Below, one piece after another: positions 12,001 through 43,024 of a stretch of DNA of 64,000 nucleotides. Below the pieces are notes generated by a model that was not told the origin of the DNA, did no database searches, and saw nothing but the letters and a program-made list of their open reading frames with translations. The position numbers were made by a program, and so were the translations under genes. The stretch is taken from NCBI GenBank assembly GCA_029261035.1, contig JAJDCD010000012.1, positions 158,776-222,775 of the forward strand. The letters run 5' to 3'. Position 1 is the stretch's first letter, and each line of letters begins with the position of its first letter. Source of the stretch: Candidatus Omnitrophota bacterium. GTDB taxonomy: Bacteria > Omnitrophota > Omnitrophia > Omnitrophales > JACROU01.

Positions 12001-15000
12001 ACCAACTCAGGGCGATCTGACTTAACCGTTCTAGCAATTTTCCCAATCACATTGCCGACCGCATCCGTTATATTTTGGTATTCAATACGATTGTTATCAT
12101 CTTCAAAAACAAGGAGATTATTGGTGATGGGGTCAAATTCTTTGGTGATGGTATTGTCTTCGAGGTGATCGATTTGCTTGATTAAATTTCCGTAAGAATC
12201 AAATACCTGCTCTACTTCTGCTTTTCCTTGGTCATCTTCAACGCTAACAAGCTCTCCATCCGATCCAAATTCTCGAATGATAGTGGATGCTGCAACGTTA
12301 GCCAACCCAACAAAGCCAGCAGATAGTGCTTGTTGCGCGACTTCATCTCCCAATCCTTTAAATAAGAAGTCGCCTTTGGCTTCAGGAGAATCCTCTGGTG
12401 GCGCTCTAACATTAGGTTGATCATCTAAAATTCCGTCTGGTTCTGAAATTTCGGGTGGCAATAAAGAAGATTCTGGGATTTCGGGAATGTCAAAAAGCTG
12501 AACTACAGGCGCTGAAGAAAAGTCAGAAACATCCAAAACCCCGCTAGGACCACCTAGCCCTAAAGGACTAATAACAGAAGGTGCTCCAATTGCTTGAAAA
12601 TCAGCTAGAATCGATTCTGCTGACTGCCCTCCTTCAACATCTAATACGGATAAGTTAACTGCGCTAGTAGAGTCCGCAATATGTTTACCCCACTGTGTTG
12701 GTGAGCCAATATTTAAAAATTGAAGGTTGGCAGCCGTTTGTATGACTTCCGCCCATTCTTCAGGGGTGTTCATATTAGGATAAGGTCCAATGATAGACGA
12801 CAAATTATTATTAATAATGGAAACGATTTGTGATTTTTGGTTTCCTGCTTCACTGACTGCCTTTAATAGTCCTCTTGCTTGAGTAATATTTTGAATCCCC
12901 CCTGAATTTCCATAATATCCTGGAGTTCCAAAAATCTGATCTTTACTGACACCTGCACTCAAAAGCTCTATTGCAATAGCAACACCTTCCCCTTTGTCAT
13001 AACGTAAGCTATCCAGAATACCCGCAATTTGTTTAAACGTGTTTCCTCTTTGTTCATAATAATTATAAATATTATTCGAACTGTCTGTAGGATCTTCATA
13101 GTCATATTGATATACAGAGCCATAATAATTTGTTTTTGCTGTCAACTGCCCTTTAGGAATATAATTTAATGATAGTAATTGGGAATTAAATGCAGCCTTG
13201 AACAAGTCTGTCGCTTCGCTCAACTCCCCACCAACATGCTCTAGATAACTATTAAGCATCTCGTTCAAATCAACAACGCGAGAATCTTCCAAAGCTCCAC
13301 TTTCATCTAAAAGCACGTCATAAAGTTGCTCTAACTCTAAAGTCTGATCAAAAATCATCACAGCCAGCAAAGAAACTCCCGCACTCACTAGTTGATTAAT
13401 AGATTCAGCTGAAATAATATTGTTTTGAACTTTATCTGAAATTAAATTTAATGTACTTTCTAAATCTAAACTTGAATGCATTTGAGCCATTGACTGAGCA
13501 GCGCTAACAAACGAAGCCGAAATACCCAAAGCAGCCAAATTATCTACTTTTTCTTTCATTACAGGATCCGAAATAAGTGCATGCATTGAATTTAAAGCAT
13601 CGATACTACTGATAGAAGAAAGATCTACGTCCTGAACAGCTAAATCAACAACCTTACTGACAACAGCATCCCATTCTTCTTCTGTGGAAGGGTCAGGATA
13701 TCTTCCAACAATATTAAACATGTTGTCTTTCAAGGCTGTAACTACTTTGTCTTTGTTTTCACCTGCTGCTTGAATTGCCTTTAAATAAGAAGCCATTTGT
13801 TCAACCGCCCCAACGTCATCCCCTGAGCTCCTACCATATCGATCTAATGTTCCAAACAAAAATTGAATATCAACACCCTCAGCAACAAATTGAGACAAGA
13901 CATTTACAGCGTCCCCTTCCTCATTTCTAAAATTATTAGAAAAATAATTTAAGAAAAGGTCTGCTTTTTCTTTTCTATCACCATAATAGTCATCCGTGTA
14001 ATCAGGATCTCCTGATTGTCCATAAGTGTAATTATAAACACTGCCGTAATAATTCGTATTAGCTGTTAATAAAGATGGATCAATAAAACCTTCAAACAAA
14101 GAATTTTCGAGTAAATTCTTAAATCCAGCTATTGCTGCATCAAGCCCCTCTCCAGCATTACCCTCCATGAAACCACTGACAATTGTATTAAATTTATCTT
14201 TACGATAACGATCAAAAGAACCATTCGTATTTTTAATCACATCCATAATTTTATTGAGCTCTAAATCAGAACCAAAAACCATCATGACTTGAGCGCTCAA
14301 CCCTGCTGTATTCGCCTGATCTAAAATATCTGAGGTTAAATCTCCATTTTGTAATTTAGTCATTAAATCTGTAAGAACAGCTGCTTTATCTATTCCCTCT
14401 GTTCCTCCAATACCAGCAACCATAGCCATAGATATTCCGGCATTTAAAGCATTTTCTGTTACTGTTTTTAAGTTGGGATCCGAAAGCAAGGCATTCATTG
14501 CTGATAACTGATCAGTACTTGTAATAGCATCTAAAGAAAAGTTTTGCGCCACCAACCCTGCCGCATCATTAACCACACTCAACCAATCTTCAACGGTTCT
14601 TTGTGATGGGTAACGACCAACAATAGTACTAATATTATTCTCTATTACTGTTATAACCGCTTCTAGATTATCTCCTGCGTTATTTAACGCCTGAATATAA
14701 GCTTGCATTTGCACTGTAGACTTCAAACCATCCCCTAATGTGCGTCCATACTGATCCAAACCACCAATCACTTTATCTAAATCAATGCCCAAATCATTCA
14801 ATTGAGCCATCAACTCCAACCCTTCTCCCTGATCATATCTTAATGTACTACTGGTAAGTAAAAAGAATCGATTTGCAATATTTTTTCGGTGAGTAAAATA
14901 GTTTTCTATATACCCTTCTTCTCCTTGAGTTCCATAACTATAATGACTAAAACTTCCATAATAGTTTGTTTCTGCCGTTAACTGATCAACAGGAATATAC

Positions 15001-18000
15001 CCATTATCTAGAAGAACCGATCTTAAAGCATTTTTTACATTACCTGGTATATTCTGCCAATTAGCTGCTCCAGAATGATCCAAATAGCTATCAATTAAAG
15101 CATTCATTTTATCTTTTCTATAACGATCTATATCAGAACCATCGTTAGACAATGCATCAAAAAGTTTCGTCAAATCCTCTGTTAAGTCAAAAGTCAAAAT
15201 AGTCTGCAAGCTAACTCCATTACTCACTAGCTGAGTGATAGAATCTGCCGTCATCGCTCCTTGATTTACTCTGGATATAAGCTCATTCAATACGTCTGCT
15301 AATACCATTTCCGGATGACGTCCCTGTGTATCCCCAGCCAAAATCAAAACACTCGAATCCATTCCTGCATCCGTAACAGCTTGGACTAAATTTTGAGTAT
15401 CTGGATTTGTTAATAACGAGTGCATCGTATCCAAAATAGAAGTACTGGTAATCGCATCTAAGGATGTATTTAGATTAACCAAATCAACAATTTTATTAAT
15501 AGTCTCTTTCCAACCTTCGACAGAGTAAATTCTTGGATAAGTCCCGACGATAGGAGTTACATTATTTTCCATTACTTGAATAAGCGTTGTAGGGTCTGCA
15601 GCTTCTTCAATAAGCTCTTGATATGCTGTTAACTGATCTTTATTTTGAATACCTCGAGTAACAACATAACCATATTGGTTATATTCCCCTAATAAAGTTG
15701 TCGAGTTCACTCCTGCTTTGTAGAGCGCTGCCATCGCTTGAAGAGCTATCCCTTTATCCGTCCCTTGAAAAGAGTTAAATCCATTAATCACATTGTTAAA
15801 TACTGTTTGGCGATTATTTCGATAAGTAGACTCATTAACTCCATCGAAATCATATTGAAGAGCACTGTTACTATCAACATACTGTGTTGGAACAACATAA
15901 CCATTTGAAAGCATCAACGTTTTTAACATATCTTTAGCATCCGACATTTCGTTTTTCCAGTTAGCACCCCCCACATGACTGATAAAACCATCGATTAAAG
16001 CACTCAAACTACTAGCTCTAGTCCCCTCAACAGCAGTGTAGTAACCGCTTCTTCCCAAAACATCCGCAAGTTGATTTATTTCTTCTTCAGTATCAAACAT
16101 AAGGATAGAAGTTAAACTTAAACCCATTTGAGTCATATGATTTATTAAACTGGCATCATACGCTCCACTCTGAATTCTTGTCTGAAGATCTGTAAGAACG
16201 TCTTTGGCTAACATTCCAGGGAAGTTTTCTTCCGATTCTTTTGCCATAGCAAGCACAGCAGGGCTTACATTAGAAGAACTGAGATTTGCCATCAAAGCCA
16301 GCGTCTCTGGGTCTTGAGTCATTACATTAAGTCTTTCTAAATCTTCAATACTCCTTGCCCCATTAACTGAAATTCCTGAGTTAATAATATTAACCGCATT
16401 TAAAACTAACCCTTTGTACACTTCTGCTTCCTCAAAGCCATTTGTAAAATTAATAAATCCCGCGATTCCACTGTTGATTGCAGCTACTCCTTGGGCAGAA
16501 TTACCACCTAGTTGATCCATTGCTTGTTTAAATCCATCTAAAATATTAATGCTATAAACACCATTATAAAGTAACGTTCCTTGTGCAATCCCACCTAACA
16601 TATAATCTCCACCTACTCCCTGCTCGTAGAGCGATGACAAAATATCAAGAGCTCTGCCTTGATTAGGAGAAGCAGAACTGATCACATCATTCATTCGATA
16701 AAACACCGATTGCCTATTTTTATAGTAATCATTTGTGTTGTACATATAAGGGCTGGTTTCTGTTCCATCACCTATAATTCCAAATTTCACTCTTTGCTCT
16801 GAAGTTAAAGCCCCCCAAGTTGTAGTATCCGTAATGTCCAAATAGTCATAATCCAGCAATGTCTCCATTAAAAAGGTTTTAACTCTGCCTTTTTCACTCT
16901 CCCAAGAAGCAGCCCCTTTATACTCAATAAATCCATTAATCATGTCGTTCATCATATCAACAACAATAGTGTTTGTTGTTACACCGTACCTTAAAATACC
17001 ATCAAAAATTTTTTCAAATTCAGCTTCTGAATCAAATAACATCAATGTTGTAATATCCAACCCAAATGCTGCCATGCGATTGATTGTGGTTACAGATAAA
17101 TTCCCTTGTTGAATTAAGTCCTGGATTAAATTCAAAGTTGATTCAGCTGTAAACTCGGGAAATCGCCCTTCTAACTCACTCGTAGCTCCTATAACACTTC
17201 CAGCAATTCCTTCAGCAGCCAGAGAGTCCACTAATGGTTTTGTGGCAGGATCCATAACTAAATCATATGTTTTACGAATAGATTCTAAAGTGGTGTTAAT
17301 AGGCACTGACAAATTGTTATTTTTAATAACAAGCGCTTTTTCCAATACTTCTTTCCAATCAGCAGAAGACATTACAGTGATATGTTCTACGGATTTTAAT
17401 TGGTTATTTACAATCTCTACCATTAATGTTCTGTCAGCCTCTGAAGCTTCTTCTAGCGCTTGGGCAAATCCGCTCATTTGATCTTTAGAATCCATTCCTG
17501 GCAATACCACATTTCCATAATACCCATATTCCCCTTGAATTCTCTTAGGGGTAACTCCAAAACCTGCCAAGGTCCCAGCACTCAACAAAACCTCTCCTTC
17601 ACTACCGCTAAATTTATTCATAAACGACTTAAAACTATTAAAAACTGTTTTGCGGTTATTGTAGTAAGTATAGGTATTTAAAGTAAGTCCTCCGCTGTAA
17701 TAATCCTCAGAAACACCTAGACGATAACGATCTTCTTCTGGAATCGCCTCTAAGTTTTGAGGATCGACATAATCCACCATGATAAGCAAGTTCATCAAGG
17801 CATCTTTTACTTTGGTTAACCCAGAGTCATCCAACGTCTCATAAGCATTCGAAACAATATTATTTAAATTTCCAACACGACTTGTATCAATTGAAACATC
17901 ATTACTTTTTAATACATCCATCAATTGTTGTAATTCAGAATCTGTATCAAATAGAAGAATCACTTTTAATTCAACTTGATTGGATACAAGCTGATCCAAT

Positions 18001-21000
18001 GTGTCCTTACTAAATTCCTGTGCATCTAATTTTGAAATCAATGAATTAATGGTATCTTGAAAGACAAAACTCGAATTCTCTGACTCGAGCGAAAGAGCCG
18101 CTGCAATCAAGGATCCTGAAATACCTGCGGCAGAAGCATCCAAAACAATTTGTCTCATCTGAGGGTCTAATAACAGTTCACCCATCCTCTTTAAAGAATC
18201 CACATCTGTAATTCCTTCTGTTGAAAACCCTAAATTTGAATCATTAACAATGGTATCCGTTAACGTTCCATTTGAGTCATAAACATAATCCTTAAGAGTA
18301 ATTTTCCCATCAATAATAGCAACCTCACTAACCAAACGATCATTAACATCGTAAGATTGACTGCTGCCATCATCTCCAAAAGCTTGCCTTGATCCATCTG
18401 GGTTTTGAATTGCAGTCACCTCTCCTTTAGAATTAATTTGTTGAATCGTAACTTGATTATCAACACTCGTTAATCTAACTTCTGAAAGTTTATTTTCTAC
18501 GTCATAACTATACTCTTCCATAGATCCGTCTAAAAATTCGATTTTTGTAACATTTCCACTAACATCATAAGTCTGTTGTGATCCATCTTCTAAATTAACC
18601 GTTGTACTTGTATCTTGAACGTCAAAAGACTGTTGAGACACATTTCCATCTTTGTCTGTTTTTTGGATTGAGGATATATTTCCAGATACATCATAAATAT
18701 AGTTCTGAGAGGAGCCATCAGATAAATTAATACTTAATAATTTGCCTGAAGCATCATAAACTTCTGTGGAACCATTAGGAAGACTTACAGTAAGAGTATT
18801 AGTGTCTGGATCAATTGCCTGTGTTGTAGTTTGATAGTTATTATCAGTAATCTCTACTTCTATAAGGTTGTTATCTGTATCATATTTAAACTGTCGAGAA
18901 CTTCCATCTACATTATCAATACGAGTTATATTTTCGTTATAGTAGTAATGAATACGTCCATCTGGAAAATCAATACGATTTAATGTGCCATCATACCCAA
19001 ATGATTGCGTTGTTTTCTCCCCATTAACCGCCGTAAGAGATATCTCTCGAAGAGTTGCTCCCCAATAAGAATAGTCAATAACTGTCCCGTCAACCTGAGT
19101 CACTTTTGCCAATTGACCTAATTCGTTATAATCGTGAACAGCTCCATCTGGCAAAACAGATTGCTGAATATTGCCATTCTCCGCCATTGTATGCACCGTC
19201 AAAGCATCATTAGAATCCCTAGCTTCAATCGTAATTAAATTATTGTTTTCGTCATATAAGTAAGTATGATTTGATCCATCAGGGTAAACGACAGAAGAAA
19301 CTAAATTATCGTCATTAAAGTAAGATACAATGCCATCAGAAGATGTTTCTGAAATAATTTTTCCTTCAGGACTTATCGCTTGAATTACTTCGGTTCCGTC
19401 TTCATCAATCAACTTTATAGATGACAACACTTCATTTGAGTACCCCAACTCTTTTGAACTACCATCCGTGTGCTCAATTCGGTATAACCGCCCCTCAGAG
19501 TTAAAGTACTTCATGTCTCCATTAGGCTCTTCAATAGAGACAACCTTTCTATTCTGATCTAAAGTTTGAGTGGTAACCTTCCCTTCACCATCCGTTATTT
19601 CAATTGTTTGCAACAATCCTAAAATACTGTAGGAATACTCTTGCTGGGTCCCATCCCCATTAACAACTAATTGAATTCTTCCAGACAAGTCATAAGTTTG
19701 TTCTGTTCCATCTTCCAATTGAACCACAAAACTATTGCCATCATCTCCAACAACTCTTTCCGTAACAGTTCCACCAGCTTCTGTAACCACAATTTTTGAT
19801 AAAACAGAATTTTCATCATATTGGTAGTCAACTCGATTTCCATTCGCTTTATTCACAGATTGTATTTGCTGGTTCTCTCCAAAAAACTGAACGCTACCAT
19901 CAGGTAACTCTACCGTTGAAATCAATCCTCTTGGGTCATAATTCTGAACTGTTTCATTACCCACAGCATCTGTTAGTTTTATTTTTTGCAACAACCCTTT
20001 ATCCGAATAAGAATAATTTTTACGGGTCCCATCCACAAACTCTATCTTCTCAAGATTCTTACTTTGGTTATAAAACTCTTTGGAGCCGTCTGGATTATCT
20101 ACAACAACCAAGAAACCCTCTACATTAAATCTCTGTATGGTTACATCGCCATCTAAGTTTCTCTCTGTAACCATGTCTAATTTACCTAAATCATCATAAA
20201 GGTAATTCACCTCTTCCCCTGAGACTTTGACTTCTCTCTCTAATTTTCCCAATGCATTATAAGTTTTTTCATCTCCTGCTATAGTCGTTTCACTCAAGAT
20301 ACGGTCGTTTTGATTGGAATCAAAAACCATCACTTTTCCATTGGACCGTGTCACTGTAATAACACCTTGATCTATAGCTAACGTGGCAAGGTTCTCATCC
20401 GTGTCTGCAGAAAAATATTTCTGATAGAAATTAATTACATTTGCATGAGCTTTTGCTTCTTCTACAGAAAAACTTGTCTTTGCCCCACTACTGATATCAG
20501 ACAATTGACCTCTAATTTCTCCATAGTTAAGAGATACATCCGCCCCATCAGTATCTTTTACAGTTTGTAGCAATGTGCTATTTCTATCTAAAAAGCTTTG
20601 GTAAGCCGCAAATTCTTCAGGGCTTTCAGTCATTAGATTGGCCATAAAAGCAACATTAAGTTCTTCTGAATTTATTTTCAGCCCAAAACCAGTTGAGCTA
20701 CCAGCTTCAGAAACAGCCTTAAAGGTTTTTCTATTAGAAAGATCTGATAGGTTTACATTCAACGCTGCTGAAACATCATTTAAATTTGCAACAACACTTT
20801 TTGCCTGTTGAATTTGCTCTTCTGTTGCATTTACATCGAAAATAACATCATCTTTTAAACTAACTGCTGATTGAATTAAGGCATTAATACTATCTATGTT
20901 TTGATTCGCTATATACAAATCACCTTCCGTCAAAGCCTCAATAGAAGATGTCCTCAATACATTGATTTGACCTGTAATTTCTGTAAGAATATTTAGTGAT

Positions 21001-24000
21001 ACATCTGAGGTCACTTCTCTACTCAAATTATTTACTCCATCTTCCAAAGAAGCTACAATGCCATTAATTGCATTTTTAATCGTTGCAGCATCCCCTAAGT
21101 CCTCTTGAGTTCCCCCTAAGGATTCCAATCCTAAAATCGCTAGATCCAACCCCTCTTGAATAGATTGAATTCGCTCCAAACTAATTGAGGCTCTTAAGCC
21201 ATCTTGGTCCTGAATTTGTTGGGTCAAATCACTAGCAATAGCAACTGCTCTATCATTCAAACTTTGAACAACTTCATTCAATTGCTCTAAAGAAGCAAAA
21301 GAGGAAACCCGAACAGCCTGCATCAAACTTTCATTATCCGCTAATTGAGTTTGTAATGACAAAACGAGATTCTCAGCTTCTTGAATTTGCTCAGCTGTAG
21401 AAAGCCCACTTTTCCTCATACGTTCCAGCGCATTAACAGCACTGTCATTAAGTATCTGAAGATTTTGCAACGCAGCTTTTGATTGATTAAAATCGTTTTG
21501 CTCTATTGCCCCACCTAGTGCAAGCTGTATATCTGCTGGAGAAATAGTACTCTGATAAGACTTCATAACACTACCATCAGCTCTTTTATCATAAGACATT
21601 CTATTCGCCTGTATTTCACCTGTTAAAGCAGAAATAGTCGCCGAAAGAGTCACGTCATTATCTTCATTGAATTGGGTAAGCAAAACAGTCCCGTTCTTAT
21701 TTACTTCAGTAATCTGTTCTGTTTGATTATTAGACCTTTTTACATAAGAGTAAGTACTAACACCACCAAAAGGATCTCTTTTTTCAATCATGTCTCCTTC
21801 TTTGTTAAACTTTTTAATGGTTCTTCGATCATTGGAGTCCGTTTCAATTAATTGGGTTAACACTCCATCTTCACGCGTATATTCCATCTTAATTCTTTTT
21901 TCATACGAACCATCTGCTGGTGTTGAAATTGTTTCTGTCATATCTCCATTAGAGGCATAAATCCGTGTGGTCTTATTTCCAGTTAAATCATCTGTTTCAA
22001 TAACCTTTTCCATCGTTCCTTCAGCATTTCTAATCGTTTCGGATGTTGTGGAAGAAATAATCACGCCGGATGAATTTTTTACTACATTTTTAGTAACATC
22101 TCCAGACGTAAGGTCCATGGTGCTGACAGTGTTATTACCCTGATCATCATCTGTGATTCTTGATAAAATATTTCCCAAACTATCTTTGTTATAACTCATA
22201 TTGGCCACAACATTGGTTTTACTATAAGGGTTATATGTTTCAATACGAATTAAGTCATTTTCTTTTGGATCAAAAACTTGTGTTTTAATGAAGCTTTTAG
22301 GATCAACTTCTATAATGTGTGTTGTATTTCCAACGGAGTCTAAAACATAAGAGTATTCTGTAATACCTCCAAATTCATCAATTTTCTTCTTAATTTGACC
22401 GGTAATGACGTCCATTTCTTTAGATACCAATAAACCTCGACCATCCTTCTCAGTAATAAACTTAACATTACCCACACCATCTCTTAAGTATTGAAAATCT
22501 GTCTTTCCTCCTAATGGATTGGTAAGAGAGATTAAATCTCTCAACAAATTAAATTCTTTTCTTGTTACAAGACCATTCGGATCTGTTTCAATAGTTTTGC
22601 TAATATTTCCTTTTCCATCTTTCTCGTGAATCATGCTGGTCAAACCACCAAACTTGTTACTAAAACCAGTCACATCTCCATGAATGTTAAAAGATTGAGA
22701 AGTTTCATTACCATTTTTATCGGTGGAAATCTGTTTGCTTAGATTTCCTTTTCCATCTTTTTCATTTGTGATATTGGTAACACCTCCATATTGATCAATC
22801 AAAGCAGTTGTGTCTCCATGGACATTCGTTTTTCTGTGAGTTTTGTTTCCATTTTTATCAATCGTGCTTGTAACCAAGACATTACCTTTTGCATCCTTAG
22901 TGTAATCTAAGACACTCACACCTCCGAAATTATCTACCTGAGTAATCAAGTCTCCACTGGTATTATAGTGTTCTTCTGTTTTTTCATTATTACGATCAAA
23001 ACGTGTGATCTTCTTATTGTTTCCTTTCCCGTCTTTTTCATACAACATTCTACTCGTCGATTCCCATCCTTCTTCCAAATTTTTAAAGGTTTGAGACAGA
23101 ACATCCCCATATTTGCTCATTTCTTTTTCTGTCACATTATTATTCTTATCTGTTTCAATTGTTTTCTCAATATTACCTTTATCATCCTTTTGGTATTCGA
23201 ATAAAGTGGTAGCAGACCATCCTTGCTCTACATTCTGAACAGTCAAACTTTGAATATCACCATATTTACTTTGTGCTTTCTGAGTAATATTTCCATTCTT
23301 ATCTGTTTCTGTAACTAAATTTACATTTCCTTTATCATCTTTACCATACACAAACTCCGTGGAAGCTTCCCAACCTTGATCTTTGTTTTTAAAGGTAAGT
23401 CGAATCAAATCTCCATGGATGTTATTTTGTTTAATAGTTTCATTTCCATTTTTATCTGTTTCTGTAATTTTTACAAGATTACCAACACCATCTCTTTCAT
23501 AAACAAATTCTGTCGTCGCCTCCCAACCTTCTTCATTGTTTTTAAAGGTAGAGCTCGTAATATCTCCAGCTACATTAAAGTCCTTAATTGTTTGGTTTCC
23601 ATTCTTGTCCGTCTCTGTTGTTTTAGTGATATTTCCAATTTCATCTCGTTCATAGCTTGTCGTTGTAATCGCTTCCCAACCTTCTGAGAGGTTTTTAAAA
23701 GTAACCTTAACAACATCACCAGCGTCATCAAACTCTTTAATGGTTTTATCCCCATTCTTATCTGTCTCTGTAGTTTTAGAAACATTTCCTAGCTCATCAT
23801 GTTCATATTCATAAGTTGTTGTATCTTCCCAACCTTGGTCTATATTTTGAATTGTTAATTCGACAAGTTCTTGTCTGCCGTTAAATTTTTCTGTTTTAAT
23901 ATTTCCATTTTTGTCTGTTTCTCTACGTTCTATCATATTTCTATTTTCATCAAACTCATATTCAAAGGTTGATTTCGCTTCCCAACCTTCAACACTTCTA

Positions 24001-27000
24001 AAAACTCTTTCCGTAATATTATTGTTAATATCAAATTTTTCTATAGTTGTATTTCCATTAGGATCCACCTTAGTCGATTTTAAAATTTGAGAAGTTACAG
24101 GATCTCTATCATAAGAAATATTTGTTTCCTGAGTCCATCCTTGCGCACTTTGAACAACAATTTTTATTGGATCCCCAAAGATATCCAATGTTTTTTCTGT
24201 TATATTTCCATTTTTATCTGTCGCAATCGATTTCGTAATTCTTCCATTATCTCTTTCATAAGCAAAAGTAGTTTCTCCACCAAATCGGTCCACTATGGAT
24301 TTAACATCTCCAAAAGCATCCAAAGTCCTAATTTCTTGAATATCCGCTGTGCCTGGATTGACAGCAATTACAAAACCATCTGCATCTTGCTCTAGAACAT
24401 ACCCTTCAGCATTTGCTTCCGTTCGGGTCACAATCGTTTCTAGTAACTTACTATCATCATCTTTGACTGTTTCATTAATAGTTAAAGACCCATCCGAAGA
24501 TAAAATAGCTACATTTTCACCCGCGCTATTGTAAAGAAACGTATTTGTTCTATATGCAGTTGGGGTTCCATCTTCGGCAAACAAAATAGGCTCTTCTGTT
24601 GTATCAATAACACTGACTTGATTTCCATCCACGTTAATTTGCTTATATCTAGTGCGAGTAGTCTCTTCTGTTCCTACAACCTGAAGCACCGACTCTCCGG
24701 AAGAGGTGTCATAGATATAAGGGGTGACTTTCCCCGTAGGATCAATTGTTCTATCAATCAAATCTTGTCCAAACTGATCTCTACGATAGTAGTTGATGGT
24801 TCCGTCATCATCTTCAACTCGGTCTAATATGCCAGTATTCTCATCGTAAAAATAGGTGCTTTTTTTATCTAGAGAGCCATCTCCGTTGTAAAAAGAGATC
24901 TCTGAGACTCTTTCACTTCCAGGATCCCCTTCATAGGTAGATACACTGGAACGCCCGTCCTCTGTTTGAGTCACTGTCGTCAAAGCTCCATTAGCAGCAT
25001 AAGTATAATCCGATGTTGAAGAGACATCTGGGTCTGTGTCTGCATCATCACCATCTTCTTCATAAGTTACAACCTGAGACATTCTTTCTCTTCCCCTTTC
25101 AGTCCCTTCGTATTTAACCGTAGAAAGAAGAACATCTGTATCTTCTTTAAATTGATTTACTTGTTTAAGCGCCTCATTTTCATCATATTCAAAGGTACTT
25201 CGAGACAACACTTTGCCTGGTTGGGAAATATCGTATTCCGTAGTTTCAACAACTCGCTCTCTTCCAGGCTCTCCTTCGTAAGTTGAAGCTGATTTTATTG
25301 CAGCGCTGTCACTGTCCTGAAGTCTAATTTGAGTTTCGCTAATAGCTCCACCGTCTCCATAAATATAATCTTGTCGAGATGCCAAAGCATAAGCACCGTC
25401 TTCTTTTTTGAAATAATTAAGAGCACGGTAGATACGCTCTTGACCCTGTTCACCTTCCATCAAGTTTATAGCAATAGGATGTTCATTAAGGTCGTCCTTA
25501 TCTCTAATCTCTGTTTTAAGCAGCTTGCCATTAGAGTCATATACAAATTTTTGATGTGTAGAAAAACTAGATTGGTTTGTTTGGGGGTCAATACCGAAAG
25601 TAATCATTTCGGTTGTTAATTCCTCACCACGATCTCCTTCAAGTCGAGCTTCTTGAATAATGGGAGCCGTAGGATCTTCACTATTTCTATATTGAATTTT
25701 CTTAATACGATCCTTGTCGTCATGTTCCATATGCTGCCAAAGACTGAGCTCTGCCTCACCCGCTTCATTAATACGGTAATTTAATACATCGGAAGCAATT
25801 TCACTTCCTGCAGCACCTTTAAACTTCGTTTTTTGCAAGACAGGATCTGTTTCATTAGGACCTGATCTTCTACTGATTTCTTGAAGAGCTCCCGTTACGT
25901 CATAAGCGTAATCCGTACGGTTATCAGGAACAGACAAGGTAGGATCATTTTCATCTACTCTATATTCAATATTATACAAAGTTCGCTCTTTACCAGGCTC
26001 ATCTCCCTCGTAAAAACTTTCAAACAAAATAGCTCCATCTAAGTCTCCAGAATTTCTTCGCACGATTTTCTTCAACACACCTTGATCATAAAAGAAGTCT
26101 GTTCTGCCTGTAGCAATTCCAGCATCATCATATTGGACTGTATAGTCAATCAAAGTGGTTCCTGGCAAGTACTGAATATCAGAAACAAGAACATCATCCA
26201 CTAAATTGTCCAACGCATCCACTTCATTATTAACTCTATATTGTTTTAAGCCCGTATTATCGCCATCTTCATTGTATTCATAAACACTCATACTGCCTGG
26301 CTTAGTCTCCGAAGCTCCAGGGCTGTCTAAATCAACTTCATAATTAATAACAGCTTTAATGCGTTCATCTCTAAATAAACCTTTTTCATAAATTGCTTCA
26401 CTGACAATATTACGAAGAGCATTCGTTGTGACCGTTTTTAGAATATAACCCGCAGCATCATATTCATAAGTCGTTTTATTTCCAACACCATCTTGGGTGT
26501 AATCAATGACTGGCACATTAAAGTTATCCAATTTTTTATAATAAAGTGTATTCTGAAAAGCTCCTGTTCCTTTTTGCACTGCGTCTGCAGCATTCTCAAC
26601 ATCACTGACATCAAAATTCTGTATCCCGGTCATTTCCCCATCTTCATTATAAAGATACTCACTTCTAGATATAATCTCCTGTCCGATTTCATCATAACTG
26701 ACTGAAGTATCTACCTGACCTTCTTCATTAAAAAAGCTCTCACTAATCTTAGTGTTATCTTCTAAGCTTTTTTCTCTAACTGTTTTCAAAACCTTATCTG
26801 GACTCTCTGGATCATAAACACTTCTATTGACACTACCTGTTCTAGAGACGACATAATCCACCTTAGCATTACCTTCACCGTCCGTTACCACATTACCTTC
26901 TGCGTCTTTCAAATAAACTGTTTTTTCAATAACACGAATAGGACCATCTGTGGAATTTGTCTGCTTACTAATCGCTTCTAACTCTCCCTGATCATTGTAT

Positions 27001-30000
27001 AGATAAACATCCACCTCTCCTCTGAGGTTGGTTATTTTATCGATCACATCTTCATCTGTTACAGGATTCTTCTTATAATTTATTTTTCTTCCATCATTAA
27101 GAAAAATAAGTGTATTTCCATCTTCATCTTCTTGAACAGACTGAATAACTGCATGAGAATTAGTAAAAAAGTCTAAAGCACCATCTTTTTTATAATAACT
27201 AATAGTTCCATTATGAAACACATCCCGACTCATTCCATCAATAATTTGTGAATTTGTATTTTGAGGCGTATAGTCTACTTGGGTAAAATCAATAATAGCG
27301 TTTGTTTCTGGGTCTCTAACTAAATCAAAAGTCTGTATCACATCTCCATTCTTATCTATAATTTGCTTAATATACCCATCTTCGTAGAGAGATTTTTCTC
27401 CATTCTTATTCGTAAATTCAACCAACTCTTCATTTTCATTAAATACACTTAACTCCCCATCAGCGAGAACTTCATTACGAATTAACTGATCATTACTATC
27501 TAATGTTTGAGTACTAACAACACCTGTTTGTGGGTTTTCAGATGTAACAATAGTTTTAGCATCATCCCCTTCACCTTCATATTGATAGGATGTTATTTGC
27601 TGTATGTCATCTGGAAGATCCCCAATTCGAGTTGTTATTTTGCTGGCTCTATTTTCAGAGTCATATTCATAGTCTTGAATTGTCCCATCAGGGGATATGA
27701 CTTGTTGAACATCTTCATTTTCATTAAATAACTGCCGTGTTCCATCAGGAGTAACAACCTCGGAAATTTTTCCTTCAGAGTCAAACTTTTGCGCTGTGAC
27801 ATCCCCTTCTGGATCCGTAACATTAATTTGAGATAATTGATCTGCTTGATTATAAACAAAGTCTTGAGTCGTTCCATCCGGTTGTACCACTTGAGAAACA
27901 TCTCCATTAGAGTTAAATGACTGGATAGTTCCATCTGCAAGTTCAACAGAAGAAACTTCACCATTTGCACCCATATTCTGGATTGTAAGTTCCCCCTGCG
28001 AATTTGTGATTCTAATTTGCGTTAATTCTTGAGCTTCGTCATAGACAAATATCTGCGTTGATCCATCCGTCTGATCAACTTGCGAAACATCTCCATTCGC
28101 ATTAAAAAATTGCTTTGTTCCATCATCAAGTTCAACAGATGAAATCTCTCCATTCTCGCCCATATTTTGAATAGTGATATTGCCGCTAGGATCTGTCACT
28201 TGTATCTGAATTAGCTTTTCCTCATCACTATAAATAAAATCTTGAATCGTTCCGTCATTTTGCTCTACACGTGAAATGTCACTATTTTCATTAAAAAATT
28301 GCTTTGTTCCATCGGCAAGCTCTATAGAAGATACCTCTCCATTCTCATTCATATTTTGAATCGTTAGTATATTATTTTCATCTGTAATTCTGATTTGGGT
28401 TAAAACACTTTCTTGATAAATATATTCTTGCTTACTGGTATCTGGATTTTCAACCCTACTTATTGCTCCATCTTCGTTAAATGTTTGCTTCGTACCATCA
28501 GGCAATTCTACCGTTTGAACTTCTCCTGCTTCGCTCATTCTTTGCAATGTTTCATTGCCATCAGCATCAATCAATTTAATTGCAGCCAAAATAGCGTTTT
28601 CATCATAGATATACTCTTGCGATGATCCATCTAGATTATCAACACCTGTTACTTTACCTTCAAAATCAAAATATTGCTTTGTTCCATCAGGCAGTTCAAT
28701 CGAAACAACATCTCCATTTGAATTCATTTCCTGCTTTGTTGTTTCACCTTCTGGGGTCGTAATATTCACAAAAGTCAAAACACCTAAGTCATTGTAAATG
28801 TAATCTTGGATAGTTCCATCTGTCTGTTCAACACGACTTACATTCCCATTAGCATTAAAAAACTGTTTTGTTCCATCAGCCAGTTCAACAGATGTTGCAT
28901 TTCCATCCACATCTACGTTTTGATAAGTAATCTGATTATCTGGGCTCGTTATTTTAATTTGAGATAAATTACCTTCATCATCATAATCATATTCCTGTTT
29001 TGTTCCATCGGCTGTTTGAACAAATAAAGTCTGATCTGCATCAACTCCTTCACCCCCCAATTCTCCATCAGCACCCAAATCCAATGTTTGAACTTGCTCT
29101 AAAATACCCGAAGCATCTCCATAGTCATCCCCATAATAAGAAGAGAAATAAGCTTTAAATCGATTGAAGTACTGCGAAACAGCTTGCTTCATTCCCTCAG
29201 AAATATTAACAGGGTTCCCTTGTTGTAAATCAGAGCGAATCACATTAATTTGATCCGCAACATCTTGATAACTCACTTCAGCTCCATCAACAACAACACC
29301 TCCAATATGTCGATAAGCAGGATTTGTCAAAAAAGCCTCATAATTATCAAACTCTGTCGTGCCTAGGTTATTTTGAAAAAATGTTTGATTAATATCATCA
29401 GGAGAAACCCCAACGATCGCAGGGCCTGCCCCTTCTTCTAAACTCGCTCTCAAAGCCACTTCTTCTGCAGAGTCTTCTGGGACAGCGATCCCCATAAAGT
29501 TACGATAACGCTTAATATATTCGTCATGAGCTTGAATCATCACTTCGGAAGGAACCTGATTAAATGCCGCTTGATTTCCATCCGTAACCATTAAGTCAAA
29601 ATGCTCTCCTACCTGTCTGTAAGTAATAGTATGAGGATTACCCTGAGCATCAGAAAACGTAGCATTAATATCTGCAAATTGACCTTTAAGAAAATCAACA
29701 TAGTTATCTGCTTCACCATTATTTGCTCTAAAAGAAGCTAATAAGCGATTCACTGCTTCATCATTGGAAGCTGGGGCAACATACCCATCTGGAAGCTCAA
29801 CATCTCCAACAGGAGCTCCTACAACCTGATCATTTAAAGTTGGATCTATCAATGTTTCAGTACCATTTGGATTAATAATTTTTATAGTTCCATCCGCTTG
29901 AAGTTCAATCTCTGGGTAAGAAACAATAGCCGTTGGAGCGCTAAAGACGCGAATGGTAGCTTTATTCGCCGAGGCTACTCCATCCTGATCATAGCCATAA

Positions 30001-33000
30001 GTGTATTCTTGACGACTACCATCCGGATTGACTACTTTGCTAATATTTCCATCCGTATTAAAATGCTGTTCTGTTCCATCTGGAAGTTCCACTAAAGAAA
30101 CATTTCCATTTTCATCAAATACTTGTATCGTTCCATCCGGCAACTCTATAATTTGAACCTGCCCTGTTCCTGACATACTTTGAACCGTCTCATTCCCATC
30201 CGCATCCACTGTCGTTATCTCTGTTAAAACACCTTGATCACTATAGGCATAACTTTGCGTTGCACCATCCGCTGCTACTACTTGAGATAAAGTGCCGTCC
30301 TTATTCATATATTGCGAGCTTCCATCAGGCAATTCTATATGGGTAAGATCACCATCACTATCAAGGTGCTGAGTGGTAACTAAACCATCCACATCGGTAA
30401 TAGCAACCGAACTCAATGATCCCCCCGGAGCATATTGAAAACTCTGTTCACTTCCATCCGCATTCACAACTCGACTCACATCCCCAAGCGCATTAAAAAA
30501 TTGTTGAGTTCCATCCGGCAAAGCAACAGAAGTTACCCCACCTGTCACATTTAAGTTCTGAGTTGTTACAGCATTATTCGGATCTGTAATTTTAATTTGA
30601 GTTAAGTTCTTGGCGTTATCATAAAAGTATTCTTGCTCACTTCCATCTGGAAGCTCTACTCGAGTAACATCCCCATCCGCATTAAAAAATTGTTGGGTTC
30701 CATCAGAAGTGACAACAGAGGTCACATTACCATCCACATCCAAATTCTGTTCTGTTATATCCCCATTGGCATCTGTGATTCTTATTTGAGCTAGATTTGA
30801 ATTAGAATCATACAAATAGGCTTGATCTGTTCCATCCGGAAGCTCCACTAAAGTTACATTTCCAGATCCATCAAAGGTCTGTCTCGTTCCATCCGGCAAT
30901 GTAATTGTCTGAACCTCTCCTGTCGCAGATACATTCTGTATCGTTTCATTGCCATCCACATCAACAATTGAGATAGAAGAAAGAACCCCATTGTCATCAT
31001 AACTATACCGTTGTTCACCACCATCAGCTCCCACCACCCGAGATATATTTCCATCTTTATTAAAATGCTGCGTGCTTCCATCACCCAACTCTATCCGAGT
31101 TACATCTCCATCTATATCTAAATACTGTGTAACCACACCTCCATCCACATCCGTTATAGCAACAGAATTAAGAATCCCATCAGAAGAATATTGATAATTC
31201 TGCTCACTTCCATCTGAGTTTAAAACACGCTTCACATTCCCATTCACATCAAAAAACTGCCCACTCCCATCAGGAAGAATGACAGATGTCACATCTCCCG
31301 ATAAGTTTAAATTTTGAAGTGTTATATCATTGTTAGCAGCAGTGATTTTGATTTGACTTAGGTTTCCTGAAGCATCATATAAATACTCTTGCTTACTTCC
31401 ATCTAGAAGCTCAACACGACTCACATCTCCATTGTCATTAAAAAATTGTTGGGTACCCTCTGGCGTTTTAACAGATGTGACATTGCCATCTAAGTCTAAG
31501 TTTTGTTCTGTAACCCCTCCATCAACATCTGTAATTTTAATCTGAGTTAAATTGGAGTTCGCATCATAAAGATAAGCTTGACTACTTCCATCTAGAAGCT
31601 CAACCAAGGAAACATTTCCGTTAGCATCAAATGTTTGTTTTGTACCATCAGGCAGTTCAATTGTTTGAACTTCTCCGCTTGCAGATATGTTCTGAATTGT
31701 TTCACTTCCATCTATATCAATGATTGTGATAGAGGTAAGAACTCCACTATCATCATAATTGTATCTTTGTTCACTTCCATCACTAGCAGTAACCTTTGTT
31801 ACATTTCCTTCTAAATCAAAAAACTGAGCTCCTCCATCTGGAAGCTCAACACGAGATATATCTCCAAGTGCATTAAAATTTTGTGTCGTTACGTCTCCAT
31901 CAATATCTGTAATTGAGATAGAAGAAACATTTCCGCCAGCACCATAAACATAGTTTTGCTCACTTCCATCAGCGGCAATAACGCGACTTACATTTCCGAG
32001 AGCATTAAAAAATTGAGAACTTCCGTCTGGAAGAACAACTGAAGAGACATTACCTGCTGCATCTAAGTTTTGAACTGTCGATTGATTGTAAATATCGGTA
32101 ATTGTAATACGAGTTAAAGCTCCTCCTACGTCATAAGTGAATTCCTGAACACTCCCATCAGGCTGCTCAACTCTAGAAACATCTCCATTTTCATTTAAAA
32201 ATTGTTTTGTTCCATCAGGAGTCATAATTGAAAGAACATCTCCCTCTGGACTCAAATTCTGAATTGTTACTCCACCCTCTAACCCAGTAAGCAAAATTTG
32301 CTTTAATTGAGAATTATCATCATATATATATTGTTGACGAGTTCCGTCGGGTAATTCGACCAGAAGAACATTTCCCTGTTCATCAAATGTCTGACGAGTT
32401 CCATCCGCGAGTGTAATTGCTTGAACATCCCCGGTAGCCGATACGTTTTGAACTGTCTCATTCCCATCAACATCTATTGATGTAATGGAGCTCAAAACAC
32501 CCTGTTCGTCATAGCTATATCTCTGCTCTGTATTATCTGCTCCAAAAACCGTATCAACAGATCCGTCTTTATTAAAAAATTGAGTACTTCCATCAGGAAG
32601 AAAAATCTGACTTAAATCCCCATCTCCATCAAAAAGCTGAGTTGTTGTCGATCCATCCGAATCCGTAATTGCCAGGGTTCGCAAACTACCATCAGCAAGA
32701 TACGAATAGCTTTGAACGCTTCCGTCAGGACTAACAACTCGGCTAACGCTCCCATCAAAATTAAAAAACTGTTCTATACCATCCGACAATACAATCGAGG
32801 TCACATTGCCATCTGCATCTAAATTTTGGGTAGTCACAGAATCAAAAGAATCTGTTATTTTAATTTGATTTAAGTTACTATCCGCATCATAGAAATACTC
32901 TTGCTTACTCCCGTCTACAGACTCAACACGAGTAATATTTCCATCTTCGTCAAAAATTTGTTGAGTTCCATCAGGTGTCGTTATTGAAACAACATTTCCA

Positions 33001-36000
33001 GCACTATTCAAATTTTGCTGAGTAACATCTCCACTTTCATCTGTAATATTAATTTGAGTTAAATTAGAAGTATTATCATAGATATAAGATTGACTCGATC
33101 CATCTGGAAGCTCTACCAAAGTCACGTTACCAGCAGCATCAAATGTCTGTTTGGTTCCATCAGGCAATTCTATGTTTTGAACATCTCCAGTAGCAGATAC
33201 GTTTTGTATCGTCTCATTCCCATCGACATCGACAGATGTAATAGAGAGCAGACCCCCATTCCCATCATAGCTGTATCTTTGCTCCGTCCCGTCTACATTA
33301 ACAACTCTTGAAACATCTCCACTTTCATTAAAATGTTGCTCAGAACCATCAGGCAGTTCAACGCGCTTTATACTCCCATTAACATTTAAAAATTGTTTGG
33401 TTATCTCTTGATTCACGTCTCTAATTTCTACTTGATTTAAAGTTCCTGTAATAGCGTCATAAGAATAAATAGATTCACTTCCGTCTGGGTTTACAATGCG
33501 ACTCAGATTTCCATCCCCATTAAAAAACTGCTCTGTTCCATCAAAGGAAACCATTGAACCAATACTTCCGTCTGAATTTAAATTTTGTATCGTTACATCA
33601 TTATTTATATCCGTTATTGTGATTGAGCTTAAATCGCCATTAGCATCATAAGTGTAATCTTGGGAACTCCCATCTACAGATTCAACCCTAGAAACATTAC
33701 CTTCTGAATTTAAAAATTGTTTGGTTCCATCAGAAAGAAATATAGATGTAATATTTCCAGCAGCATCCAAATTTTGGATTGTTATTTGATTAAAGATATC
33801 GGTGTTTCTAATTTGACTCACATTATTATTCGTATCATAAAAATACTCTTGTTTCGTCCCATCTACATTTTCAATGAGGGCGATATTTCCTGAAGCGTCA
33901 AAGGTTTGTTTAGTTCCATCCCCAAGAACAATACTCTGAACTTGGCCTGTTGAAGAAATATTTTGAACTGTTTCACTTCCAGCCACATCCACAGAAGTAA
34001 TAGAAGTTAAAACACCTGTATCATTGTAATCATATCTTTGCTCGGAACCATCCTCATTAACTACCTTTGTAACATCCCCTTCTTTATTGAAGTGTTGGAC
34101 AACCCCATCTGGAAGATCTATATGTGTAAGATCACCATCCGTATCAAAATGTTGAGTTGTCTTCAGCCCTACAGCATCCGTAAACTCAACAGAGGTTAAT
34201 TCGCCTGAAACATCATAATTATTGACCTGAACACTAAAATCTGGGTTAACCTGATTTAATAAATATCCATCAGGATGAAATTGCTGAGTCGTTCCATCGG
34301 GTAACTCCAAAGCAGATAGAACCCCGTTATCATCAAAATTCTGCACCGTAACCAAACCATCTATATCTGTGACAGTAATATCTGTCAACAAACCTGTAGC
34401 GTTATAGCTATAATCTTGAACTGTTCCATCAACCAAAGTTCTCTTCTCAATTAAATTAGTAATAGAGTCCACTATATCCACTTGTCCATCAGGGTATGTG
34501 GTCGTTATAAGACCTGTATTTTCATCCAACACAGAAACCGGGGCTGGAAAATAGGTATCTCTTAATAAAGTGATACTACCCGTCAACTGATCAAATTCCG
34601 TTTGAGTTAGCGTTTGATTCGTAAGAGCATCGTTGACTGAAACTTCAAGAGCATCAATCAGATCTTCATTTTCCAAAGCATCCGCAACAGCTAATTGAGT
34701 CAAATTTTGTAATGTTTGATCATGGGTAACAAATGCTGGGCTTGCTTGTCCAGCATAAATCTGCTCTCTTTTTCTTTCTAACTCATTTTCCAGATCAACT
34801 TCTTTTAAAAAGTTAGACAAAGCTCGTCTTGAATTAATAGGATTGTAATCCTCAGAACCTCTTTCTAGCTTTACCGCTGCTTGTAGTCCTTGAATAAAAG
34901 CCCTTAAATCATCTGTCTCAGAAATAATTCCATCCTGATTAAATTCAAAAAGCTTAGGTCCTTCATTTGTATAAGCAATTACAAATTGACTCTCTTCACC
35001 TGCTACCTCAAAATCTCGAAGACTGGGTTCAACACTAGAAACACCACTAGGATGCGTGTGTGATTTAAAAGATGACTTTTGAATAAGTGAAGCTACGGAT
35101 TGAGAAGCGGTAATTTCATCATCTTGCCCACTAGAAAATAATACTATTTCTCCCTCAACAACAGTAATAGCAACTTCCATAGGCCAGTCAAGTAGACTTT
35201 GAAGACTATCAGCAGTAATTGCTCCAGGATCCAAAATAACAGCAGCGGCTACATCTTTATCAAAACCACCCATTTCCAAAGCGTCTTCAATACTGTAACG
35301 TTCTATTTCTCGAACATCTGCCCATAAATCTCGTTCAATACGATCTCTTTTTAGAAGCTCAGCTTCTCTTTCATATTCTTCAATAGTAACAACGTCCCCT
35401 TCGGGTTTTTCGATTAATAAATTCCCATCTTTGTCTTGAACCAACTTTGGAAGCGCTTGATCAGGATAACGGTAAGAATTCCTAAAATGCTGACGATAGA
35501 TATTCCAAACTTGAGCATGAGCTTCTGCTTTAATAGGATCGATTTTAGAACTTGGATTAACAGACCTGTCTTTGATTGATTTTAAATCCCCCAACAAATC
35601 CATCATTGAAATGGAAATACCAGCCTTCCCCTCTTCCCTCTGAACCTGAACCGTTCTACGTGCATTAGATTCAAGAAATTCCATATAGTAATTAAATTCC
35701 AAAGGCTTTTCTTCGCTAAAATTTTCCAAAGATTGATTAGAAACATCTTCACTTTTAACAGCTTCTTTTTCAATGAAATCTACAGCAGCTTTTGGAGCTT
35801 CTTTCTTTTCAACTTTGACGTAAGAAAAATAATCCTCTTCCACTTCTTTTCCTGTAAATGATTTTAGGGTTTCTTCTTTTGTTAAGAACTCCCCTAATTC
35901 TTTTTCTTTATCCTCTTCTTCTTTTGCAATTCTTGTTTCTTCATAAGCTTTTTCATCTTCAGCTTTTTTAGCAGCATCTTCGGCTGCAATTGTTTGAATT

Positions 36001-36301: not shown

Positions 36302-36330
36302 ACTATACCTAGTGTTTCCTATTGTGTCAA
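36302..36330 (-). promoter_or_regulatory. Near-consensus sigma70 promoter for the giant gene: -35 TTGACA (36325-36330), 17-nt spacer, -10 TATAGT (36302-36307).
   Basis: Minus-strand sequence ttgacaCAATAGGAAACACTAGGtatagttatagtgt lies 30 nt downstream of the rndB stop and about 70 nt upstream of the giant-gene ATG. AGGAGG sits at 36241-36246. Confidence 0.55.
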
Positions 36331-39300: not shown

Positions 39301-39455
39301 CTAGCTCTTGTTGTAACTGAAATAATTCCTCGAGACATGTTTTGATAGAGTTCAACTTGAAGACTGATTAAGGAAATAACACCTAGGAGGATAATCCCAA
39401 CAAAGAATATGATAGTAAAAACAGGTCGTCTAACAGAAAAATTTGGAAGTCCCAT
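36360..39455 (-). CDS. RND family efflux permease (HAE1/AcrB-MdtC-like), 1031 aa.
   Basis: ORF track. RND N-terminus MGLPNFSVRRPVFTIIFFVGIILLG, 12-TM architecture, size typical of AcrB/MdtB/MdtC. Confidence 0.9.
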   Translation of the reverse strand: MGLPNFSVRRPVFTIIFFVGIILLGVISLISLQVELYQNMSRGIISVTTRARGGLAPVEVESLITKPVEESVATVARLKNLFSNSREGESKVTLQFEPGTNMDFAALEVREKFAKVKNKLPEEIEKPIIANFNDSDSPILIFSIVSGVKTPEELREYVEKNIKPAVARVQGVASVDVYGGRERKILIELDRDRMFAQNITVEKIMETVGSANVNLLAGDFQQGSLNIAIRTIGGFTEVEDIGEIGVGTTSEGSIVPLKEVGTVKDAYSEPQDYARLNNQDNCSLQIKKTSTSNTIKVSRSVQSEVELIRKFLDEDIRISVITDRAESIKKAIGEVRNSLLLGVILTVLTIFAFLRKVSLAFIVMLSIPSAVIGTFIFMAALGVSINVMTLTGLALAMGMLVDSSIVVIENIYKKKQEGMHHFEAVIVGAEEVWLPLAASAATTIIVFLPIIFIDKEIQLMYQGLAFTISASLICSLFVAVMLIPMLMSRIKLGRSGGAEDLKKLERSRFFSGYRFLLSKTFKNKYIVLLIVFLSFVYAAGEIGKKDMDMPSSYEENEFSVIVFPIAGAKLGANDRVAKIIEDLLSEFPEVETMNTVVRKDDLKLYVKLLPKRKRKTSKEEIIKYIREKGGEEAKTVHEDYSVIVDEGVSGDESTKLVIDIYGHENDKLEKLAHEFTGIMGKVPGLSNVVMTDLRKRPEYSLIVDRGRASYYNLTVKQVADSIHAQVRGMRPTKFREQEKGEEVETITRLQPIYREKLEDLRRILVGNKGGDQIPISQVASFFPSTGPSTIDRKDKHRYVFVKADTSRAIEAVAKDVKEAVKDVEFPKDYYFRFGGKYPELIKGRGQLSQAMIITVVLIYMLLACLFQSFVQPLLIMVAVPLAAIGVWAGLTLTGKPLSQSVFIGMIMLAGTVVNSSIILIDRINMLKEDYTHVESLLMRACQDRLRPIMMTTTSTLLGFAPMAISFGQSAELWAPLAITVMGGLISSTILTLFIIPCLYYGLDDLKRGFSKLRNIKIPKLSLKKKTEIPVN

Positions 39456-39475
39456 AACGTTGTCCTCGAATCCAT

Positions 39476-42898: not shown

Positions 42899-43024
42899 AG
42901 TTCACCTCAAGGTTCTTTATAAGTATACACCATATTTGCATTTATGACATTTCTTAGTTGCTAAACGGTGTTCCGAGGAGGGATTTAGATATTTATCCTT
43001 GCTACTATAGTAAATATCTCTTAA

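Follow-up and report, generated by a model that had tools for sequence, protein, structure and literature searches.

The contig JAJDCD010000012.1 of a Candidatus Omnitrophota bacterium (GenBank assembly GCA_029261035.1) carries, at positions 158,776 to 222,775 of its forward strand, a stretch of 64,000 nucleotides (nt), here called the window, on whose minus strand one giant open reading frame (ORF) runs out over the left edge. This account deals above all with a tandem array inside the predicted giant protein, in which units of 51 amino acids (aa) are followed by units of 46 aa. Two successive beta-hairpins, stretched to about 27 + 24 aa, make up the 51-aa unit, which is a YD (Rhs) repeat of higher order and as such a lineage-specific version of a well-characterized repeat family, not a new domain family. 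This is the best explanation and probably the correct one; the array would then serve as a structural module of a putative surface scaffold.

The giant open reading frame

Between nt 36296 and nt 3, read on the minus strand, lies a single stop-free frame of 12,098 codons, and the ORF listings contain no other sizeable ORF between nt 1 and 36,000. Translation likely begins at the ATG at nt 36230, which is preceded by an AGGAGG ribosome-binding site; a sigma-70-like promoter match lies further upstream (Table 1). The N-terminus of the protein consists of a basic stretch and then a hydrophobic segment (aa 42-60) that, judged by its sequence, looks like a signal anchor. Hydrophobic segments occur at three places, aa 42, 6050 and 12065. 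The 19-residue segments at aa ~6050 and aa 12065-12083 (nt 48-104), the latter right at the window edge, have mean Kyte-Doolittle values of 1.75-1.81 and could be membrane-spanning or buried. There are about two cysteines in the 12,098 residues. RHS_repeat is the sole Pfam family above its curated cutoff in the visible protein, scoring 328 bits over aa 23-3999 and 135 bits over aa 4000-7999; no dockerin, carbohydrate-binding module (CBM) or enzyme domain was found there by Pfam. An earlier reading of the letters alone, hereafter the sequence-only reading, had flagged the interval 22580-27500, which corresponds to aa ~2933-4572 of the giant protein.

Period, copies and composition of the 51-aa and 46-aa arrays

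A tandem protein repeat is indeed present at the flagged place, on the minus strand. The autocorrelation of aa 4001-4620, scored with BLOSUM62, has a sharp peak at a lag of 51 (mean score 1.13, 31 % identity) that recurs as harmonics at lags 102 and 153, and as this peak lies far above anything obtained with shuffled sequence (maximum over 100 shuffles, -0.37), the call of a repeat stands. At a lag of 56 the score is -0.84, which is background. The sequence-only reading had described about ten copies of a 56-aa unit; the tandem repeat holds and the unit consensus given there is essentially correct by the unit alignment, but the period is 51 aa and the copies number nine, with five 46-aa units after them. 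The figure of 56 was a miscount, since the consensus string comprises 54 residues including a repeated FKN, which leaves 51 per unit. At the level of DNA, Tandem Repeats Finder (TRF) reports a 153-nt period at 23516-23807 but counts only 1.9 copies, owing to the divergence between them.

The consensus of the 51-aa unit is xxEGWEATTxFxYExDxxGNxxKxTETDKNGNxTIKxFNxxGDxxxxTFKN, and pairwise identity among the nine units averages 36 % (range 14-61 %). The GWEA motif is present in all of them except the first. The consensus of the 46-aa unit is GGVTxxxYEKDGKGNVSKTIETDKNGNxTSKEFNVHGDxTxLxNxx, such that a segment of about nine residues, KNxxEGWEA, in the 51-aa unit stands where the 46-aa unit has an FGG turn. 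No tryptophan other than that of this insertion is conserved in the protein's YD part: arrays A and B, with their 63-aa units (described below), have none in 2,072 aa, and the 51-aa array has exactly one per GWEA unit. Composition shifts likewise, with the lysine content rising from 1.8 % in array A to 9.4 % in the 51-aa array and the net charge per 100 aa going from -12 to -6.6. Beyond the 46-aa units the array degenerates: against the hidden Markov model (HMM) of the unit, aa 4699-4741 score 22.7 bits, aa 4803-4840 18.9 bits and aa 4843-4883 13.7 bits, compared with 60-82 bits for single units of the array itself.

Between units, DNA identity is 42-69 %, and no near-identical DNA copies were seen in the array. 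The mean proportion of synonymous differences (pS) is 0.68 and that of nonsynonymous differences (pN) 0.38, and the G, W, Y, D and N positions are invariant across units. Because pS is saturated, pN is about half of pS and the structural positions do not vary, the copies of the array are old and under purifying selection.

Relationship of the array to the YD family

The Pfam RHS_repeat family (PF05593) has a curated gathering threshold of 22 bits. All 14 units together (693 aa) reach 69.7 bits (E 2.4e-19) in five stretches, and the eight GWEA units alone reach 37.7 bits (E 2.5e-9). In profile comparison with hhalign, positions 8-49 of the 51-aa unit align to positions 1-41 of array A's canonical 63-aa unit with a probability of 95.5 % (E 1.4e-8), a match that covers exactly two YD repeats of the 63-aa unit. 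The 46-aa unit behaves likewise, and the 51-aa and 46-aa units match each other with a probability of 98.6 % (E 1.3e-15). Additionally, a phmmer search of the PDB sequences aligns the 46-aa units to the Rhs core from Salmonella bongori's type VI secretion system (T6SS) (8qjd/8qjb/8qjc) at E ~4e-5.

Searches of larger collections give relatives of the same kind. A 102-position profile of double units, run exhaustively against 1.84 billion representative proteins, yielded 250 matches at E<=1e-3 and 13 at E<=1e-10, the best with 98.9 bits, and RHS_repeat was found, at 58-650 bits, in all seven of the proteins from the top 150 matches that were scanned with Pfam. A scan of metagenomes returned three loci with 27-31 % identity, all encoding canonical YD proteins with a 21-aa period, and the ETDKNGNI in them is an ordinary xTDxxGN turn. 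Matches of the array to green fluorescent protein-like chromoproteins (E 0.02-0.8) were set aside as beta-strand noise.

Features in common with the YD/RHS repeat are the strand-to-turn motif Y..D..G[NR], here in a non-canonical form, with a TDxxG turn after it, the two strands predicted per repeat and the tandem arrangement; a unit of higher order is no departure in itself, as the 42-aa model TIGR01643 (YD_repeat_2x) already rests on two repeats. What differs is the length of the double unit (51 or 46 aa, not 42), the motif (YExD, not YD), the KNxxEGWEA insertion with its invariant tryptophan, and the Lys/Glu-rich composition. The second hairpin of the 51-aa unit carries FNxxGD, and hairpins average 25.5 aa in length, compared with 19-23 aa in the protein's own canonical units. 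The insertion would account for most of the extra unit length, lengthening one hairpin. The assignment to the YD family, a judgement from sequence comparison, bears out one of the two options left by the sequence-only reading, a divergent YD/Rhs variant, with the Pfam score above cutoff, the hhalign match to the protein's own YD units and the RHS-repeat relatives all in its favour. No significant sequence relationship connects the array with the central sheet of OspA, the G-box of CPAP/TCP10 or MORN repeats, to which the likeness is topological only.

Predicted structure of the array

An AlphaFold2 (AF2) model of aa 4051-4503 is all-beta, with a predicted local distance difference test score (pLDDT) of ~80-90 over the first ~240 residues. 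Four antiparallel strands, that is two hairpins, are predicted per 51-aa unit, and the longest of them (10-11 residues) flank the GWEA turn. Such a prediction for consecutive units had been proposed along with the sequence-only reading, and the model speaks for a sheet of hairpins, two to a unit. In a Foldseek search of the PDB, the top matches are to Tse5 (5.6e-11), followed by Tse15, VgrG-Rhs, YenC2, RhsP and teneurins, at TM-scores of only 0.15-0.3. Taken with the model on which they depend, these fold searches fit a hairpin sheet and do not single out Rhs.

The irregular segment with YEGxxGxER units

Immediately before the 51-aa array lies about 1,000 residues of a different appearance, with seven units that are anchored on [YFLM][EK]GxxGxE at aa 3429, 3492, 3552, 3613, 3673, 3729 and 3788. 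The anchors are spaced 63, 60, 61, 60, 56 and 59 aa apart, and the units are 56-63 aa long with the consensus RxxxxxxxxxxxxxxYEGxxGxERxxxxxxYxxxExGxxxLSxxxxYxYDxNGALxxxxx; six of the seven end in a YxYDxxG-like motif. Isolated YxYDxxG motifs occur at aa 3277, 3463, 3584, 3644, 3764, 3815 and 3860. Pfam returns no family at E<=1 for aa 2950-3990 alone and no match, RHS_repeat included, for the individual units. The segment has no match in a sequence search of the PDB and no homologue in a word-indexed search of 5.8 billion proteins, and a profile of its unit likewise gave no significant PDB match, only non-significant ones to LptE. An AF2 model of the segment has a pLDDT of 36.7 and is unusable.

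The irregular units are most likely a strongly diverged form of the three-hairpin YD unit. This is the most economical reading because their period is close to 63 aa, they lie between YD arrays and each has kept one YD motif. The motifs that the sequence-only reading had described in this region are present; its term "Rhs-like" finds weak support in one YD motif per ~60 aa. About 1,000 residues adjacent to a recognizable array would hence have drifted past recognition by every library tried.

Other arrays and the remainder of the protein

The YD blocks that had been said to flank the flagged interval are real, and take the form of 63-aa arrays at aa ~600-2150, at ~2400-2950 and, more weakly, at ~5300-6200 (Table 1), the last of these being the second YD block of the sequence-only reading. 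In array A, each 63-aa unit comprises three YD repeats (23 + 21 + 19 aa), and there is a super-period of 252 aa (4 x 63) such that every fourth unit is nearly identical, for example those at aa 1004, 1256, 1508 and 1760; TRF detects a 189-nt period at 30448-30790. For the textbook 63-aa arrays the scores are 328 bits (RHS_repeat) and 221 bits (TIGR01643). In array C the best stretches are aa 5847-5885 for RHS_repeat and aa 5787-5823 for TIGR01643. A spacer rich in Leu, Ala, Gln and Ser, which from its composition is probably alpha-helical, separates the 51/46-aa array and its tail from array C. Two tools proved unsuited to mapping the repeats, as a single-hairpin HMM built from array A was so specific that it tiled only the 63-aa arrays and a strict YD regular expression was too stringent.

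Table 1. Positions of the giant open reading frame, its repeat arrays and associated features in the window
Feature	Position (nt)	Strand	Residues (aa)	Evidence and remarks
Giant ORF	3..36230	minus	>12,076 from ATG at 36230	C-terminus past left window end
Sigma-70-like promoter match, TTGACA-17-TATAGT	36302..36330	minus		Upstream of giant ORF; 11/12 consensus positions; consensus match only
Acidic N-terminal region			to ~600	
Canonical YD array A	29847..34409	minus	~630-2150	Lag 63, up to 49 % identity; Pfam RHS_repeat, TIGR01643
Canonical YD array B	27447..29099	minus	~2400-2950	Lag 63, 36-38 % identity; YD-HMM matches
Irregular segment, whole	24327..27449	minus	2950-3990	Scattered YD motifs; between array B and 51-aa array
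Seven irregular ~60-aa units	24807..26057	minus	3414-3830	Motif anchors, alignment
Nine 51-aa units	22926..24299	minus	4000-4457	Autocorrelation lag 51, TETDKNGN anchoring
51-aa unit 1	24147-24299	minus		FGG in place of GWEA
51-aa units 2-5	23994-24146, 23844-23996, 23691-23843, 23538-23690	minus		
51-aa units 6-9	23385-23537, 23232-23384, 23079-23231, 22926-23078	minus		
Five 46-aa units	22236..22925	minus	4458-4687	Lag 46; same family, without GWEA insertion
Degenerating array tail	21567..22235	minus	4688-4910	Irregular YD-like hairpins; unit HMM matches
Non-YD spacer rich in Leu, Ala, Gln, Ser	20397..21566	minus	4911-5300	~390 aa; no periodicity, no Pfam match
YD array C, weaker 63-aa period	17697..20399	minus	~5300-6200	Lag 63, 19-20 % identity

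About seven tandem copies of a unit of ~305 aa occupy aa ~5790-7920 (12537-18929, minus strand), with 21-34 % identity and blastp self-matches at E 1e-14 to 1e-60; the autocorrelation, being limited to lags <=150, is blind to them. The first copy overlaps the Pfam-positive array C, and Pfam finds nothing past aa ~5900. Possibly the ~305-aa unit consists of about five 63-aa units that have degenerated as a block. Weak blastp similarity to the YD arrays (E 1e-9 to 1e-5, 21-27 % identity) was also seen at aa ~7950-8390 (11127-12449) and aa ~10870-11550 (1647-3689), both on the minus strand, which suggests further diverged YD-like blocks undetected by the libraries. From aa ~6200 to 12098 (3-17700, minus strand), some 6,000 residues, there is no Pfam, NCBIfam or meaningful PDB-sequence match, one to Mago-nashi (E 0.0015) having been judged spurious. 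This region includes an Ala-rich part (12-16 % Ala) at aa 8500-9500 and a Gly/Thr-rich part at aa 11000-12098.

Alternative explanations

Since YD repeats are known from toxin containers, the first alternative is that the array belongs to a canonical one, in which the repeats build a closed shell around a C-terminal toxin that autoproteolysis sets free, in the manner of T6SS Rhs effectors or TcB/TcC. The repeat family and the predicted antiparallel hairpin sheet are the same as in Tse5, Tse15, RhsP, the S. bongori Rhs protein, TcB/TcC and the teneurin YD shell; the top Foldseek matches are Rhs containers, the sequence aligns to the S. bongori Rhs core, and the C-terminus lies beyond the window, where a core and toxin could be encoded. 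However, no N-terminal plug, Rhs core, toxin, PAAR or VgrG is visible. A regular-expression search of the 12,098 visible residues for PVxxxxGE and PxxxxDPxG[LWF], motifs taken as defined in bioRxiv 10.1101/2024.02.26.582050, found neither, and two DPxGL matches sit in ordinary YD turns. The same residues, which end short of the C-terminus, contain no TIGR03696 Rhs-associated core and no toxin domain, and the score of 229.5 bits against NF041261 (RHS_core; cutoff 2000) reflects similarity at the level of the repeat only. Pfam scans of the giant protein and of ten upstream genes detected no PAAR, VgrG or T6SS domain. The YD content is, moreover, several times that of one shell: YD-type sequence extends over >5,000 residues, compared with the roughly 1,000-1,300-residue Rhs chains among the PDB matches, and is split by a predicted helical spacer into arrays of differing unit length, with ~6,000 further residues after the last clear YD block. 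A container is an unlikely explanation, because every container-specific part is absent from the visible residues and because of the amount and segmentation of the YD sequence.

Less likely still, to the point of being largely refuted, is that the 51-aa unit represents a new domain family that is unrelated to YD repeats or only convergently similar to them, the second option of the sequence-only reading. Its attraction lies in how isolated the array is. The word-indexed search of 5.8 billion proteins with the 51-aa array produced no homologue, the exhaustive profile search of 1.84 billion proteins no match at E<=1e-30, and neither a recurring spacing of 51 aa nor the GWEA/Trp motif recurs in the top 150 profile matches, where spacings are typically 42 or 21 aa and GW[EDST] occurs sporadically; TIGR01643 is also silent on the array. 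Set against this, the RHS_repeat match exceeds its curated cutoff, canonical YD units from within the same polypeptide align to it at 95.5 % probability, the relatives sampled are all RHS-repeat proteins, and there is a continuous gradation from the unit, by way of the first (FGG-type) copy and the 46-aa ones, to sequence alignable with a solved Rhs core. A clear match to a well-characterized family, the finding that the sequence-only reading had itself said would remove novelty, is thus what the RHS_repeat search gives. The unmatched domain of that reading is a stretched double YD repeat and should therefore not be carried forward as a candidate new family.

The double YD repeat in a surface scaffold nevertheless has observations that count against it. 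The NCBIfam model TIGR01643 (cutoff 15.8 bits) gives no match at E<=10 on the 693-aa array alone, its scores of 221 and 49.8 bits elsewhere in the giant protein having their best stretches outside the array. The YExDxxGN of the 51-aa unit, in which Y, D and N are invariant, is a non-canonical YD motif, with one extra residue, and occurs once per 51 aa. The structural model of the array was computed from a single sequence and is of low confidence in its second half. For the proposed structural role, neither a partner or ligand nor an enzymatic domain came to light in the visible part of the protein, whose C-terminus is beyond the window. Finally, only the last 18 of the ~60 residues of the irregular unit align to canonical YD in hhalign (probability 76-86 %), and comparison with doubled canonical units does not extend the alignment past that 18-aa YD motif; the first ~45 residues of the unit match nothing.

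That the array is a recent tandem expansion, an assembly artefact or a pseudogene without maintained function can be dismissed as scarcely credible: tandem repeats are prone to misassembly and the genome is known only from metagenomic data, with the neighbouring Dxr gene matched exactly only on short Logan contigs, but the DNA copies are merely 42-69 % identical and an assembler cannot collapse or duplicate copies so divergent, the frame is open for 36 kb, and pS (~0.68) exceeds pN (~0.38) with the structural positions G, W, Y, D and N kept invariant.

Proposed role and relation to giant proteins of Omnitrophota

By analogy with solved Rhs, Tc-toxin and teneurin structures, the YD hairpins of the array probably add side by side into a continuous antiparallel beta-sheet, in which the 51/46-aa array would form a structural module of ~56 strands. 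The host protein, we infer, is a cell-surface or secreted scaffold of >12,000 residues with an N-terminal membrane anchor; the identity of the repeat stands apart from this role, being a matter of direct comparison. For >5,000 residues it seems to consist of YD-type hairpins, and container parts are not visible. The successive unit lengths (63, ~60, 51 and 46 aa), together with the change in charge (lysine rising from 1.8 % to 9.4 %), probably alter the width, curvature and surface chemistry of the sheet along the scaffold.

Giant genes have been documented in Omnitrophota (West-Roberts et al. 2023, bioRxiv 10.1101/2023.11.21.568195; 10.64898/2026.06.07.730766), and the giant ORF in the window exceeds the length of at least 10,000 aa that marks the giant proteins of this group, its taxonomic placement there coming from PurA only. 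The comparison that follows is one of features, not of sequence relationship. Like the documented proteins, the present one derives from a >10,000-aa ORF, largely lacks annotated domains and contains old, diverged tandem repeats; the 2026 preprint (10.64898/2026.06.07.730766) reports decay of the tandem repeats in the nucleotide sequence but persistence of the repeat architecture in the protein, and the same pattern is seen here. It differs in that its repeats are bona fide RHS repeats by sequence, in having one to three hydrophobic segments rather than dozens, and in lying downstream of an efflux operon of the resistance-nodulation-division (RND) type rather than of a locus resembling a type II secretion system. 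Dockerin, CBM and enzyme domains, absent here by Pfam, set it apart from Archaeovorin/Dockerin-type giants.

A bolder form of the scaffold, tentative and on balance doubtful, is that the YD hairpins form an open-ended beta-sheet spiral, fibre or tubule of several thousand residues on the Omnitrophota cell surface, assembled from arrays with periods of 252/63, ~60, 51, 46 and ~305 aa. The Trp-bearing, Lys-rich 51-aa array and the ~60-aa YEGxxGxER units would then be segments of distinct width, curvature or binding surface. If true, the Rhs repeat would here be put to a new architectural use, with a sequence link to the "novel antiparallel beta-helix tubules" that have been predicted for giant proteins of Omnitrophota; a sheet that is open rather than closed would also bear on what those proteins consist of. 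As it stands, the array is a case of an ordinary repeat family within an unusual giant scaffold. It illustrates the extent to which the unit length, motif and charge of YD repeats can change with the family still recognizable, and the hierarchical repeat organization of the giant protein retains some interest.

Genomic neighbourhood

The ten upstream genes scanned by Pfam comprise an RND efflux operon and housekeeping genes. The operon, of the tripartite type, lies directly upstream of the giant gene on the same strand (36360-46326, minus) and includes an OEP outer-membrane factor, an HlyD-type membrane fusion protein and two AcrB genes; 130 nt separate it from the giant gene, and the promoter-like site is in this gap. 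A search of the GTDB species representatives with the last 400 visible aa of the giant protein was without result. For the neighbouring Dxr gene (49314-50507, minus strand), exact matches are confined to two short Logan contigs (SRR15505516 and SRR15505518), on which there is no giant gene. In these searches the organism seems to be all but missing from public genome sets. Among species representatives, the nearest relatives of PurA are mostly from metagenome-assembled genomes of Candidatus Omnitrophota, with 57-61 % identity.

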